Notes: a model not told the origin generated them from the letters alone. 32,000 bases of DNA from Okeania sp. (GCF_035285525.1 NZ_JAYKGW010000006.1:1-32000); one strand, 5' to 3'; counted from the stretch's first letter, positions 12,528 through 23,302 are shown. Numbers and translations: made by a program.

Positions 12528-13044
12528 TATGGAACCAATTAAATTCTTTCCTAATAAACCAGTTACTCCAAATAAGTTTGTCGGCAGAACATCTGAAATA
12601 TACACAATTTTTGCCCAAATTAATAATCGTGGTCATGTGGCTATTTATGATAGTTCTGGCATGGATAAATCATCTTTACTAAAGTAAATAAAATCTCGTA
12701 ATTTTTGGGATGAGAAAGGATTAAATTTTTCACAAGCTTTGATTGTTTATCACAACTGCGAGGGTTTATTTACAACAAATAATTTTTGGAAAGAAGTGTT
12801 AATTGAGTTAAAAAATAAAGCTGAAATTGATGCAAATTTACAATGCAAAATTGATGATTTATTAAAATTAGAAACAATAGAAATAAGAGATATACGACAG
12901 ATTCTGAAGGAGATTGGGAAAAGAGATCAATTTTTATTATTACTATTAGATGATTATCATGCAATACTTCGTAAATTATCTTGTTGCAAGGACAGCGACG
13001 AATTGCTAAAACATGAGTTATTGAGCAGATTAGTAATTTTGTAG
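12528..13044 (+). pseudogene. Decayed T1-type P-loop NTPase
   Basis: Aligns with T1 residues 1-165. The ATG at 12528 is out of frame with the rest (1-nt indel near 12540). There is an in-frame TAA at 12685-12687. Walker A is ruined (YDSSGMDKSS versus HGSSGIGKTS). Walker B LLLLLDDYH is retained. The extended -10 TGATATAAT (12475-12483) is kept. Confidence 0.75.
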
Positions 13045-13046
13045 AT

Positions 13047-13952
13047 TTGGAAAACTTTGTTTTTATTAAACTTTCTCTAAAAGATAAAAACTATATAACT
13101 ATTGGAAAGTTGTTTGAAGAATTAGCAATAGAAATTAAGGATTACATAAAAAATCATCTTGAGATAGAAGAGAATAGTATTTCGTGTAATAACAATTCTG
13201 AATATCAAGATATATTAAAGTGGTTTAAGCCAATATTTTTGCCAGAAGTTTATGGAACACTAGGTGATAAAAATGTTGTTCTAATGTTAGATGAATTTGA
13301 TAATTTAGATGATATTAATCAAGATAAAGCAAACAATTTTTACAAATATTTTAATCAGATAGTTGTTAGAAATAACAAGCTTTGTCTACTACCAGTTATA
13401 GGCAAGGCTGTTGAGGAGCTTTCTAAACATTTCCAGAACTCTTTTAGGCAAGTAACTTTGGAAAAAATTGCATTACTAAAAACTTCAGATGTTAAAAAGT
13501 TAATTATCGATCCAACGGCAAAACTCAAATATCAAGATGCAGCTATTGAGGCAATTCTCAAATTATCAGCTAATCATCCTTAATTTTACTCAAGTTTTAT
13601 GTTTTAAATTATTTAACAATGCTAGAGCTAGAGATATATGGGAAGTTACTTATCAAGATTTAGAAAGTATTTTTGAAAAAGTAATTACTCATTGTCAAAG
13701 AGGATTAGCGTCTTTACTAAATTCATTACCAATATATGAAAAAGTTGTTTTTTTACAGTAGCAAAGTCTCAAGATATAGATAGTTTAACAGAGCAATTAG
13801 TAATTTTAGAAGATTATGGTGTTTTTGTAACGGATGCCTTCAAAACAGTGCTGATAAATTTGGAGAAATGGAATTTTTTAGAAAAGCAAAATTCTACTTC
13901 GCTAGAGGATTTTTATCAATTAATCGACAGCTCAAAGAAATATCTAAACTAG
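13047..13952 (+). pseudogene. Decayed T2-type NTPase lacking its N-terminus, abutting the T1 pseudogene
   Basis: VVLMLDEFDNLDD (Walker B), YQDAAIEAILKLSANHP (compare YQPDAIDAIWQLSAGHP in T2). Stop at 13581, then frame changes at about 13585 and 13760. Homology continues to about 13950. Confidence 0.65.
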
Positions 13953-14035
13953 AACCAAACAACGAGCCAGATATTCTCTAATAAAATAGAGAACCTTTCA
14001 GGAGTAGAAGTTGAACTCGAAGCCTCAGCTAAACC

Positions 14036-20986: not shown

Positions 20987-21249
20987 TCCATTTTAGATGT
21001 GTCAGTCCAGCAAGTTTCTAGGGTGCATTTTTGCGCTTCGCAAAGCTTTCCTATGGAATGCTGCGCAAACGTTTTTCATGTCGCGTTTCATATCAGCGAC
21101 AGTCGAAAAGCGAAACCGCGAAGAGCCGACATGAAAAGACAACTTAAATTAAGACTAAGAAAGGAATTTAGCAATCCGTCGTCACGCACCGCTTTAGATG
21201 TGTTAGTCCACTACGTCATATTGCTCCATTTTTAGATGTGTTAGTCCAG
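20987..21249 (+). repeat. Direct repeats TCCATTTT(T)AGATGTGT(C/T)AGTCCAG flanking a relatively GC-rich insert, just upstream of T2
   Basis: DR1 at 20987-21010 and DR3 at 21225-21249 (24/25 nt, one mismatch plus one extra T). A partial DR2, ttagatgtgttagtcca, is at 21194-21210. Confidence 0.65.
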
Positions 21250-21340
21250 TAACTTGAATTTTTGCTGCACTTTACTTCATCTTTGGTCTTTTACTGATAG
21301 TATTTTTTATTTCCTAGAAATTTTTTTACCTTTAATCAAC

Positions 21341-23302
21341 ATGAACTATAATCAACTAATCAATCCTTACGTTATGAACTATAACCAACTAATCAATCCT
21401 TACATTTTTGGTAAGCCAATTTATGAAAAAGAAAAGTTATTTGGTAGAGAAAATACGATTCAAGAAATTCAAAATAATCTTGAAAATAATGTCAAAATAA
21501 CTTTATTGCACGTCCAAAGACGTATTGGTAAAACTTCATTAATAACTTGTTTACCTCAGTTTTTCACTGAAGAAGAAAATAACTATAAATTTGTTACTTT
21601 TTCATTTCAGGGTCATAAAGATAAACCAATTCCGGAAATTCTCAATTATCTGGCTGATGATATTGCTGCTACTATTGATGGACTTCCGAAACAAGTCAGG
21701 GAAGAAGCTAATAGTTCATACAACTTTTTTCAGATTTTTTTACCCAGGATTATTAATGAATATTTATCAGGTAAAACTCTGGTTCTTCTCCTAGATGAAT
21801 TTGATGTTTTAGAAGAAGATAGAACCATATCCGATCGGGGAAAAAAGTTATTTGAAGAGTTAGAAAAACTTGTTAAGCAAGAAGAAAAACTATTTGCTAT
21901 TCTGGTTTTTGGTAGACCTTTAAATGATGTTATTTATCTAGAAGAATTTTTACAAAAAAAAGAGCAAAAGACTGTAGAAGTTGGTTTATTGGATAAGGAG
22001 AGTACAGAAAATTTGATTGTGCAGCCAGCTTTGGGAATGCTAAGATATCAACCAGATGCAATTGATGCGATTTGGCAATTATCCGCAGGTCATCCTTCTA
22101 TAACACAATTATTATGCTTTAATATTTTCAAATATTGTCGAGAAAAAAAAATAAGAAAGGTAACAGATACTCATGTTTCCTTAATTGTAAATCAAGCGAT
22201 CGCAGAGGGCGAAGCATTATTAAATAGTTTTCTAGAACCTTTAGAAGATGATGAAAAACTATTTTTTCGGGCAGTAGCAGAAATTCAAGAAAGTTCTGGA
22301 AAAAATCAACTGCAAACTATAATACGAAGTTGGCAGTCTATAGGAAAACGTTTGGTTGAAGAATATGGCTTTTTAGCAGAAAAAGAAGATCAAACAGGTT
22401 ATCAAATTAAAGTTGAATTTGTTCAGCTCTGGTTGATAAAGTTCCATCCTTTATCTCAAGAAGAAAAGTTGCAAATGCAGAAATTTCCGGAGATAAATAA
22501 TAACAATTATGAGCCTAAATCAGCAGTAAATAATCATGCTCAAAAACCTAATCAAATTTATGTTTTCTTTTCTTTGTTGTTAGTAGTTGGAATTTTTTCT
22601 GTTGTTATTATCCAATCATTATCTGGTTTCAAAAGACCGGCTATTTGCAATGATTTACTGAAGCAAATAAATAGCAAAATATCATCAGGAACTTTAGCAG
22701 AAAGATTGGCAGTTATCAATAAATTTAGAGAGAAGAAAAATTTGGATAAAAAATGTTCTAATTCTGATGAAATTTATGGAAATTTTTATGAGTTACTTTT
22801 TATGTATGGGCAGGAAGAAATTGAGAATAAAAAATTTGAGGTAGGGATAAAAAATTTATGTTCTATTAGTGATGAATATAGCGAAAAAACTCAAGAATAT
22901 ATCAATACGTTAATTGGCTCGGGTAGTAGTTTGTCTAGAGAAGAAAAAAGAAAGTTTATTGATCAAATTATTCAACAAAATCAAGCAGAAAATAAATGCT
23001 CTGCTTATTCATTTGATAACGAAGCAAATAAAAATAATTTGTTTCAGCAACTACAACAAATAGATAAGTTTTATAATGAACAAGGCAAACAGCAAAGTAG
23101 TAACTATAATTATTCAGAAGCTGTCACATCATACTGTAAAATATCAAAGTATTATTCTCAAATTCCTCAGATTAAACAACAATTAAGAGATTTGTATAAT
23201 GATGAATTTGGGGGACTTATATTGCGTAAAGAAAAAGAGGAAATGATTAATACACTCAAGAAAATAGGTGAAAATAATTGTCCAGCATTTCCAGATGTTT
23301 AA
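21341..23302 (+). CDS. T2: membrane-anchored STAND/ATPase_2-like P-loop NTPase with a C-terminal six-Cys extracytoplasmic domain, intact copy
   Basis: The track ORF starts at TTG 21254. The first ATG is at 21341 and a duplicated ATG at 21374. Motifs: NPYIFGKPI...LFGRE, Walker A-like HVQRRIGKTSL, Walker B LVLLLDEFD, LSAGHPSITQLLC, TM IYVFFSLLLVVGIFSVVII, then a domain of about 220 aa with 6 Cys. Confidence 0.8.
   Translation: MNYNQLINPYVMNYNQLINPYIFGKPIYEKEKLFGRENTIQEIQNNLENNVKITLLHVQRRIGKTSLITCLPQFFTEEENNYKFVTFSFQGHKDKPIPEILNYLADDIAATIDGLPKQVREEANSSYNFFQIFLPRIINEYLSGKTLVLLLDEFDVLEEDRTISDRGKKLFEELEKLVKQEEKLFAILVFGRPLNDVIYLEEFLQKKEQKTVEVGLLDKESTENLIVQPALGMLRYQPDAIDAIWQLSAGHPSITQLLCFNIFKYCREKKIRKVTDTHVSLIVNQAIAEGEALLNSFLEPLEDDEKLFFRAVAEIQESSGKNQLQTIIRSWQSIGKRLVEEYGFLAEKEDQTGYQIKVEFVQLWLIKFHPLSQEEKLQMQKFPEINNNNYEPKSAVNNHAQKPNQIYVFFSLLLVVGIFSVVIIQSLSGFKRPAICNDLLKQINSKISSGTLAERLAVINKFREKKNLDKKCSNSDEIYGNFYELLFMYGQEEIENKKFEVGIKNLCSISDEYSEKTQEYINTLIGSGSSLSREEKRKFIDQIIQQNQAENKCSAYSFDNEANKNNLFQQLQQIDKFYNEQGKQQSSNYNYSEAVTSYCKISKYYSQIPQIKQQLRDLYNDEFGGLILRKEKEEMINTLKKIGENNCPAFPDV

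Follow-up and report, generated by a model that had tools for sequence, protein, structure and literature searches.

The ctaB-to-amt NTPase locus of Okeania

The window analysed here, a 32,000-nucleotide (nt) stretch of DNA from Okeania sp. (NZ_JAYKGW010000006.1, positions 1-32000), belongs to a short-read metagenome-assembled genome (MAG) of this marine filamentous cyanobacterium and carries two intact genes, T1 and T2, for nucleoside triphosphatases (NTPases) of the P-loop type, together with several broken relatives. The region is the Okeania ctaB-to-amt NTPase locus, in which three or four old paralogous cassettes have left their remains. Intact T1 and T2 are kept only in the last cassette of the window, from which the middle subunit M has been deleted, and the upstream cassettes have been shortened by deletions which fused T1 5' ends to internal points of two further genes, T3 and T2', and removed all sequence as far as the 5' end of the duplicated amt copies. 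For the intact genes, identical proteins are recorded at NCBI on a contig of 60,356 nt. The borders and intact genes of the locus are the following, positions being counted from the first nucleotide of the window.

230-1225: ctaB/UbiA, left-hand landmark of the locus
3506-4059: DUF433/DUF5615 pair, left of the NTPase region
16400-17749 (+): T1, intact A-type NTPase of 449 amino acids (aa) with NTPase, helical and winged-helix domains
21341-23302 (+): T2, intact class-B NTPase with a nucleotide-binding module (aa 1-370), a linker, one transmembrane (TM) helix and a C-domain
23600-25264 (-): amt, intact ammonium transporter gene, convergent with T2 (Pfam Ammonium_transp, E 1.9e-90)

The amt gene is the conserved right-hand border of the locus and takes the same position in loci L002-L016. 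A first-pass annotation, made from the sequence without database searches, had described one intact T1, one intact T2 and broken copies bearing nonsense codons, frameshifts, a destroyed Walker A and deletion fusions; all of these were found again, and every feature it listed sits between the ctaB/UbiA and DUF433/DUF5615 landmarks and amt.

Sequence and predicted fold of the intact NTPases

T1 carries a Walker A (GSSGIGKT) and a Walker B (LLLLLDD) and keeps all 49 family-invariant columns, while the corresponding motifs of T2 are VQRRIGKT and LVLLLDE, the first Walker A glycine being replaced by valine in the T2 orthologs (by isoleucine in Trichodesmium erythraeum T2N). Both genes retain every family-invariant residue, and the ratio of nonsynonymous to synonymous substitution rates (omega) against orthologs is 0.37-0.53 for T1 and 0.27-0.49 for the nucleotide-binding module of T2 (0.27-0.53 together). 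Therefore, the two genes look functional despite the loss of M. The start of T2 likely lies at 21374, since 21341-21403 is a 33-nt tandem duplication (MNYNQLINPYV / MNYNQLINPYI) and the NCBI protein begins at its second copy (21374). T2 has a single hydrophobic segment (FFSLLLVVGIFSVVII), present likewise in all orthologs, in agreement with the membrane anchor proposed at first pass.

The AlphaFold2 (AF2) models of T1 and T2, with predicted local distance difference test (pLDDT) scores of 80 and 83 respectively, display an NTPase core followed by helical and winged-helix domains. For both, PAB2304 (2qen) was the best fold match, followed by MalT, ORC/Cdc6, Apaf-1, CED-4 and plant nucleotide-binding leucine-rich-repeat receptors (NLRs); the 2qen/2fna-type archaeal ATPases topped the structural matches of T1 and T2 at E 5.5e-10 and 3.3e-08, and the alignments with MalT, Apaf-1, CED-4, the plant NLR Sr35 and ORC/Cdc6 extend over about 390-420 columns. 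Of the features of the signal transduction ATPases with numerous domains (STAND), sensu Leipe et al. 2004, a P-loop with Walker A and an hhhhD[DE] Walker B, and helical and winged-helix domains after the core, are found here. Consequently, the fold matches justify the term STAND-like, as the first-pass annotation had called these proteins. In T2, the linker and the TM region are modelled as disordered, and the C-domain of about 225 aa, which has six invariant cysteines, is all-helical and confidently modelled.

At the sequence level, only weak generic Pfam matches were obtained for the genes (AAA_16, AAA_22, ATPase_2, NB-ARC, nSTAND1, nSTAND6). T1 scored marginally above the cut-off for NB-ARC (23.7 versus 23.5 bits) and below it for NACHT (22.9 versus 26.7), nSTAND1 (20.9 versus 27.1), nSTAND6 (21.6 versus 27.7) and ATPase_2 (PF01637, 26.5 versus 33.2). 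T2 stayed below the cut-offs of all STAND models (NB-ARC, NACHT, nSTAND1-6) and had no ATPase_2 match, a family matched at E<=1e-4 by 25 of 52 class-B relatives, and the A-type module of T3 passed the cut-offs of nSTAND1 (44.6) and nSTAND6 (37.7). In NCBIfam and PADLOC (PADLOC-DB v2), there were no matches for T1, T2, M or T3. No effector or adaptor is attached to T1, M or T2, which hold no Pfam, NCBIfam or PADLOC domain besides the NTPase, so that the lack of a recognisable effector noted at first pass is upheld by these searches and neither T1 nor T2 falls into a PADLOC defence family. The relatives gave mostly weak generic PADLOC matches (PDC-S01, best 2.9e-10; mad8, best 5.4e-06), strong matches to PD-T4-6, a kinase model, being restricted to one or two class-B relatives.

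The C-domain of T2 has no Pfam relative, and its profile found no match among PDB sequences (best E 0.8); when the whole T2 model was searched with Foldseek, the NTPase module accounted for most of the matches. This domain was found in only 6 cluster representatives of 1.84 billion, and a protein consisting of the C-domain only (P0231, 208 aa, on a 931-nt contig) was uninformative. In current databases these proteins are labelled 'ATP-binding protein' or, wrongly, 'ABC transporter substrate-binding protein'.

Pairing of A- and B-type NTPases across cyanobacteria

A scan of a genome collection with a T1 profile gave 79 loci, of which the named organisms are all cyanobacteria, mostly filamentous, and three are uncultured-bacterium MAGs. 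Downstream sequence was sufficient for 68 full-length T1 genes, and in 67 of these a class-B NTPase gene follows within 1 kb on the same strand (median gap 34 nt). The first-pass annotation had proposed an undescribed two-component NTPase system and had named a lack of linkage in other genomes as the finding that would count against it; the linkage at 67 of 68 loci removes this objection and supports the proposal, and no published description of this NTPase pairing was found in literature searches on STAND with periplasmic binding protein (PBP) domains, on cyanobacteria or Trichodesmium, and on Peripla_BP_6.

The A-type protein (T1) is soluble, with NTPase, helical and winged-helix domains and without a sensor. 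The B-type protein (T2, M and the N-terminal half of T3) is a PF01637-like nucleotide-binding module, to which a single TM helix and a variable domain, predicted to lie across the membrane, are usually joined. Of 114 class-B open reading frames (ORFs), 50 have a TM helix following this module, and Peripla_BP_6/ANF_receptor domains, of the type-I PBP class, occur in 30 of 52 class-B proteins (best E 2.7e-39), where the PBP region lies beyond tetratricopeptide repeats (TPRs) and the TM helix, the latter preceding it in proteins of about 1000 aa. The B-type proteins thereby have a receptor-like architecture. Relatives of the class-B nucleotide-binding module also carry TPR, WD40, FGE-sulfatase, GUN4 and kinase domains, and 14 proteins, including T3 and P0152, are B-A fusions. 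The flanking genes are housekeeping genes that differ by lineage, ctaB to amt here, proB in Nostoc, and genes for methylenetetrahydrofolate reductase (MTHFR) and tryptophanyl-tRNA synthetase (TrpRS) elsewhere; no conserved third gene or effector was seen in the flanks of other lineages, which hold unrelated housekeeping genes only.

The three-gene cassette and the lost M gene

In other genomes, namely Okeania SIO3I5, SIO1I7, SIO2B3, SIO3B5 and KiyG1, Dapis, two Trichodesmium genomes and related MAGs, the order at this locus is ctaB, then T1 (about 430 aa), M (about 415-420 aa), T2 (about 650-690 aa) and the convergent amt. The A and B genes form a conserved pair, with M as a third member in the Okeania/Trichodesmium/Dapis clade. 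Consequently, the order 'T1 then T2' given at first pass stands as regards the pairing of T1 with a class-B gene and is incomplete as regards direct succession, since M lies between the two in the orthologs and has left only a relic in the window. M is of class-B type and lacks the Walker A lysine in all nine orthologs (GQRR[IM]G[MI]TS instead of GK[ST]), that is, it has methionine or isoleucine in place of the lysine and keeps Walker B (loci L005-L015, for instance L007 11293-12558). The orthologs are conserved at about 60-83% identity to the M of reference MAG08, and by its sequence M is a conserved, degenerate pseudo-NTPase subunit. In T. erythraeum IMS101, T1, M and T2 lie at 2.726-2.731 Mb of NC_008312.1.

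Several genomes, including the complete T. erythraeum IMS101 chromosome, in which it is intact, have an extra upstream set T1-T3-T2N. T3 (about 965 aa) is a class-B NTPase module fused to a T1-like A-type module, and the fusion P0152 (816 aa) joins T2N to T1. The T2-type nucleotide-binding module is also seen with other C-terminal modules in Trichodesmium and Okeania, either GUN4 after the TM helix or TPR (for example L009 6298-8049; P0131, P0157, P0159).

In the window, M survives as the following relic.

19773-19872 (+): 3' end of M, about 100 nt, carrying a stop and a frameshift

Its assignment comes from blastn, with 76% DNA identity to L006 2642-2747 (E 1e-13) and to L007 12379-12462, and no further M signal was detected by tblastn in the 3.5-kb gap between T1 and T2. 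The possibility that this gap is a decayed T3 was rejected, as it holds the M relic of about 100 nt only. The rest of M is replaced by tandem and inverted repeats across 17750-19770. Among these, an array of ten copies of the octamer GGAGATGG at 17788-17867 has an inverted, 82% identical partner 2.5 kb away at 20355-20438, the two bracketing a repeat array and the M relic. The bracketed array (18088-18735) consists of six tandem units of about 100-123 nt, each with a promoter-like TTCTCA-18-TATAAT with TG extended -10, a purine-rich body of about 60 nt and a T-run; related copies are present in another Okeania genome (L063 1532-1622, 77-85%). These units had no Rfam match and folded no better than shuffled sequence, and they may represent a tandem array of small RNAs or simply repeats that carry promoters. 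Other short arrays, at 16109-16187, 19005-19056 and 1-106, are made of the nonamer CTCCCCACA (8.8 copies), of ATTAAATG (6.5 copies) and, at the window start, of a 32-nt hairpin-forming unit (3.3 copies).

Remnants of older cassettes upstream of T1

The broken copies and the elements accompanying them are listed below.

4800-5135 (+): T1 fragment A, an A-type NTPase up to codon 111, Walker A (GSSGIGKT) intact; a stop follows and homology ends
12529-12975 (+): T1 fragment B, codons 1 to about 150 of an A-type NTPase (tblastn 12526-12975, 60%, T1 aa 2-151)
12975-13922 (+): T3 fragment, aa 43-358 of the approximately 965-aa T3, truncated at both ends
13958-14131 (-): amt 5' fragment, first 52 codons or so (tblastn 46-54% to Amt aa 1-52), abutting the T3 fragment
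14369-14643 (+): repeated intergenic/promoter unit with HIP1 GCGATCGC, a terminator-like hairpin and T-run at 14469-14489, and TGATATAAT at 14594
14648-15712 (+): T1::T2' fusion, seven T1 codons (MQQPKFF) in frame with T2' from about aa 335
15784-15874 (-): second amt 5' relic, weak, 63% identical to 14027-14117, downstream of T2'

T1 fragment A (tblastn match 4794-5132) is 54% identical to T1 aa 1-114 and 53-59% identical to all other T1s. Fragment B reads YDSSGMDKSSLLK up to a stop after codon 52, has lost both Walker A glycines (DSSGMDKS) and breaks off at Walker B (LLLLLDDYH), the point of its junction with T3. The sequence that follows, taken at first pass for a T2 copy (13047-13952), turned out to be a T3 fragment, with ungapped tblastn identities to P0179 of 74% (12975-13604), 82% (13585-13755) and 72% (13740-13922) versus a weak match of 32% only to T2 (12975-13580). 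Its lesions are a stop following the Walker A (GQRRIAKT) and two frameshifts, at about 13584 and 13750. The adjoining amt fragment, of which 14027-14117 is 86% identical in DNA to 25160-25250 of the intact amt, shows where a former cassette T1-T3-...-amt ended. Together, the two amt 5' fragments (13958-14131 and 15784-15874) indicate that whole cassettes were once duplicated together with amt; both of them, as well as M, had been overlooked at first pass, whose account of the lesions and fragments otherwise held.

The T1::T2' fusion has a stop at codon 24 (14717-14719), after which an ORF of 315 codons (14765-15712) is open and encodes the end of the winged-helix domain, the linker, the TM helix and a complete six-cysteine C-domain. 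T2' matches the C-terminal half of T2 (tblastn 14681-15709, 48% identity to aa 364-682); it has retained the TM helix, preceded by the conserved segment RLVEYGF...YKIKVELVRLWL, and a C-domain that is intact and of its own type. This C-domain keeps all 22 family-invariant residues and is 54-58% identical to those of the window T2, L014 and L015. Logan contigs of run SRR19514071, an independent assembly, match 14294-16138 and 16158-17817 at 100%, and the T1::T2' junction is reproduced in Logan contig L084.

The extended -10 motif TGATATAAT occurs at 4748-4756, 12475-12483 and 14594, with the variant TGCTATAGT at 16360, within one base of the positions given at first pass, and the pattern TGNTATART has 16 occurrences versus 4.1 expected. 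A dispersed intergenic module, containing HIP1 GCGATCGC, a AGGTAGGTATTTT(A/G)CCTGCCT hairpin with T-run and a promoter-like stretch, has copies at 4522-4797, 5220-5587, 14369-14643, 15840-16018 and 1656-1752. Since it lies 5' not only of the T1 copies but also of the first ectB-like gene and of the ORF at 1833-2867, it is a repeat of general occurrence without specificity for T1.

The tandem amplification proposed at first pass is not supported in the sense of a recent local event, given the divergence of the copies, which are 54-62% identical in protein. The three T1 copies of the window are 56-62% identical to one another, T1 fragment B is 66-76% identical to T1 genes of other genomes versus 62% to the window's own T1, and T2' and T2 share 54% identity in the C-domain. 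The window copies are as far from one another as from genes of other genera. Low identity among copies together with closer foreign relatives therefore identifies them as remains of old, distinct cassettes and not as products of recent local amplification. Cassettes of the types T1-T3-T2 and T1-M-T2 are intact in T. erythraeum IMS101 and Okeania SIO3I5. Pairwise omega between the T3 fragment and intact T3 genes is 0.33-0.65, resembling the 0.37-0.41 between intact genes, so that inactivation was recent relative to divergence. With about three disabling lesions in some 330 codons of the T3 fragment and zero in 331 codons of T2' (probability roughly 0.05), a better preservation of T2' is no more than suggestive. 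Dating of the paralogs by synonymous divergence (dS) across genes was dropped, as NG86 dS is not comparable between the NTPase genes (28-30% GC) and amt (39%).

Exchange of C-terminal modules and evolutionary rate

The T2 genes of L013 (12846-14795) and L014 (12845-14818) are 94-100% identical in DNA up to codon 360 or thereabouts and 32-57% identical from there on, with a dS of 0.04 in the nucleotide-binding module versus 1.05 in the C-domain. The reverse pattern was obtained between L014 and L015 (8200-10185). This abrupt switch of identity, at about codon 350-375, implies that strains have swapped the module made of the TM helix and the C-domain by recombination. Among 12 genomes, the C-domain falls into at least six types, discordant with the identity of the nucleotide-binding modules. 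The C-terminus of B is thus exchanged as a cassette, and the window shows decayed cassettes upstream. The T2' remnant begins about 30 codons upstream of the exchange point; its junction segment is only 76% identical to that of T2, and no exchange was demonstrated within this genome.

Within the same genome pairs, identity is 87-90% for UbiA, 95% for the toxin-antitoxin pair and 63-78% for Amt, compared with 50-64% for T1, 51-72% for the T2 nucleotide-binding module and 28-56% for the T2 C-domain. Omega is mostly 0.4-0.7 for T1 and mostly 0.2-0.45 for Amt.

Other features of the window

T1 fragment A is separated from the other copies by a 6.5-kb island (5664-12174) which is not in syntenic loci and has a GC content of 0.40-0.44 versus 0.28-0.30. 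It encodes two EctB-type diaminobutyrate transaminases (TIGR02407, 604 and 642 bits), a D-glutamate-cyclase-like protein, a TauD-family dioxygenase, an FAH-family hydrolase and an S-adenosylmethionine methyltransferase, and it may specify a pathway for a diaminobutyrate-derived compound or compatible solute. To the right of amt, 26993-30496 encodes a 1167-aa multidomain papain-family (C1) cysteine peptidase with two PPC domains, a lectin-like domain and three Kre9/KNH Ig-like repeats; tandem repeats of 339 nt (1.9 copies) and 285 nt (3.0 copies) lie inside this gene. Near the right window end, a PD-(D/E)XK nuclease-family transposase (30732-31598, minus strand; PF12784, E 5.6e-51) has related fragments in L002. 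Rfam gave no credible match, neither for the whole window at the gathering threshold nor for the T1-T2 gap at E<=1, and the window holds no tRNAs.

A proposed membrane receptor complex of paired NTPases and its alternatives

The reading that we favour, with roughly even confidence, is that of an A/B NTPase receptor complex at the membrane whose ectodomain senses a variable extracytoplasmic cue, likely a biotic one. A and B would assemble, in a nucleotide-dependent manner, into a mixed ring or oligomer tethered to the membrane by B, with M, where present, as a putative non-hydrolysing structural subunit, and the B ectodomain would face outward and detect a cue outside the cytoplasm. The exchange of the ectodomain as a cassette, in genes evolving much faster than their neighbours, makes a biotic cue more likely than a nutrient; the surface of a phage, a competitor or kin are candidates. 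As there is no enzyme effector, clustering of TM helices or recruitment through T1 may serve as the output. A role in immunity is plausible.

Several points weigh against this reading. There is no effector domain and no strong or consistent PADLOC match, so that the conflict role rests on the evolutionary pattern only, and the housekeeping flanks and the position, stable within lineages, set the locus apart from mobile defence islands. The usual ligands of type-I PBP ectodomains are small molecules, an indication of nutrient or metabolite sensing. In all comparisons but a single short one, omega stays below 1. The topology is itself a prediction, with Arg/Lys residues flanking the T2 TM helix C-terminally and a TM region that AF2 leaves disordered; the hetero-oligomer is likewise predicted, and the B-A fusions could merely reflect neighbouring genes in A-B-A-B arrays. 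Finally, with M missing from the window, the local set may be impaired.

The small-molecule preference of such ectodomains leads to the main rival, namely that the same A/B complex has a physiological role, sensing a small molecule or nutrient (amino acid or nitrogen status) across the membrane with a regulatory output, for example via the winged-helix domains; we regard this as unlikely, though a serious contender. The Peripla_BP_6/ANF_receptor ectodomains of 30 of the 52 relatives, a chromosomal synteny that is stable and that always places the locus next to amt in the Okeania/Trichodesmium/Dapis clade and next to proB in Nostoc, the lack of an effector and the presence of MalT, a regulator, among the best fold matches are all consistent with it. 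The wholesale replacement of the ectodomain between near-identical loci, with at least six types in 12 genomes, weighs against such a role, as do the turnover and pseudogenisation of paralogs and proteins that diverge far faster than their neighbours. Furthermore, the neighbours vary by lineage, so the adjacency to amt may be simple inherited synteny, and the B subunits are membrane-tethered. In line with the immunity or sensing role proposed at first pass, the genes might instead form a classic cytoplasmic antiphage STAND pair, similar to Avs or NLR proteins, which would sense phage proteins and trigger abortive infection. We hold this to be improbable: the variable module lies beyond the TM helix and would face outward instead of towards the cytoplasm, no nuclease, protease, TIR or SIR2 effector is present, T1 and T2 belong to no PADLOC family and their relatives give weak generic matches, plus PD-T4-6 in one or two, and the locus is not in a defence island. 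What speaks for it is the STAND-like fold, the TPR, WD40, FGE-sulfatase, GUN4 and kinase domains of B-module relatives, as found in conflict systems, the A-type module of T3 above the Pfam nSTAND1 and nSTAND6 cut-offs, and the variation in copy number.

Two further explanations are effectively excluded. That the region is non-functional debris or an artefact of MAG assembly, with mis-joined repeats and with T1 and T2 decaying as well, might be suspected from the short-read source, the abundance of dispersed and tandem repeats, the loss of M and Logan contigs which break exactly at the repeat arrays. This is very improbable, given that the independent assembly yields the T1::T2' junction and T1 at 100% identity, that other genomes, among them the complete T. 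erythraeum IMS101 chromosome, contain cassettes of these types and partial T1 copies as well, and that T1 and T2 retain every family-invariant residue at omega 0.27-0.53. An origin of the NTPases as TniB/TnsC-like transposon ATPases was considered because T1 fragment A scores 25.4 bits on Pfam TniB (cut-off 22.4) and TnsC chains appear at ranks 24 and 40 of the T2 fold matches; it retains next to no probability, being effectively refuted by context. The TniB match spans only the P-loop region of the 111-aa fragment and is not seen in full-length T1, neither a transposase nor TniQ adjoins the pair in the window or at the 79 loci examined (sampled flanks), and the position is syntenic.

Relation to described systems

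The nearest described concept is the nSTAND2 two-gene operon. As described by Kaur, Iyer, Burroughs and Aravind (eLife 2021; PMC8195603), this operon is mobile and encodes two STAND NTPases, one of them inactive and carrying GT4 or HEPN effectors, for which a toroidal hetero-multimer is predicted. The present set resembles it in having two adjacent STAND NTPase genes (67 of 68 loci), an NTPase with eroded NTP-binding motifs, a predicted hetero-multimer and variable modules, and differs in being effector-free, in having a TM helix and an ectodomain as the variable module, and in its chromosomal and syntenic location. T1, T2, M and T3 do not match the nSTAND2 family (PF20702), to which only 6 of 52 class-B relatives match; M is inactive-like without an extra domain, and GT4 and HEPN are not among the 25 most frequent of 50 class-B Pfam families. 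A 'System 4' of Kaur et al. 2020, which mentions a TM helix and a PBP, is unrelated and corresponds to an EACC1 and caspase system.

The ATPase_2 proteins of PF01637 (PAB2304, 2qen; SSO1545, 2fna) and ORC/Cdc6 share with T1 and T2 an NTPase followed by helical and winged-helix domains; the archaeal ATPase_2 proteins, however, are single soluble genes without a paired partner, TM helix or ectodomain, and the set described here has no replication link. With classical STAND proteins (MalT, Apaf-1/CED-4, NLRs, Avs, bNACHT), it shares the P-loop module and winged-helix domain, the sensor-type C-termini of relatives (TPR, WD40) and the expansion in multicellular cyanobacteria. Unlike them, it has no N-terminal effector, has an obligate second NTPase paralog and would place the sensor across the membrane. 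The class-B proteins of Nostocales, with a PBP1 ectodomain, a single TM helix and a cytoplasmic nucleotide-handling module, are built like receptors of the ANF type (PF01094), but their cytoplasmic module is a STAND-like NTPase and not a cyclase or kinase, and the ectodomain of Okeania T2 bears no relation to PBP1, being the six-cysteine helical domain.

The combination of a constant N-terminal body and a C-terminal module that can be swapped is also known from the CdiA-CT/Rhs-CT orphan cassettes and silent pilS, in which a spare, promoter-less or truncated copy keeps a conserved junction segment, as T2' does; unlike in CdiA-CT/Rhs-CT, no toxin or immunity pair is present here. By this analogy, T2' might be an orphan ectodomain cassette, maintained as a stock for switching the outer domain of the receptor by recombination, a proposal which we consider quite improbable. 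If it is true, the locus would encode a STAND-type receptor whose sensing modules are polymorphic and can be exchanged.

In animals, plants and bacteria alike, STAND NTPases have a central place in immunity and in the signalling of cell death, and to our knowledge almost all of the bacterial versions described so far consist of a single cytoplasmic protein to which an effector is fused. The present set differs from these by the obligate pairing of two NTPase paralogs, conserved across filamentous cyanobacteria and joined in one clade by a lysine-less third subunit, by the lack of a recognisable effector, and by a putative sensing module which is predicted to lie across the membrane and is swapped between strains in a cassette-like manner. 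Taken together, if the A/B complex is real, it would represent a new way of coupling an extracellular cue to STAND-type oligomerisation, and would offer a tractable ectodomain polymorphism in the bloom-formers Trichodesmium, Okeania, Dolichospermum and Aphanizomenon.

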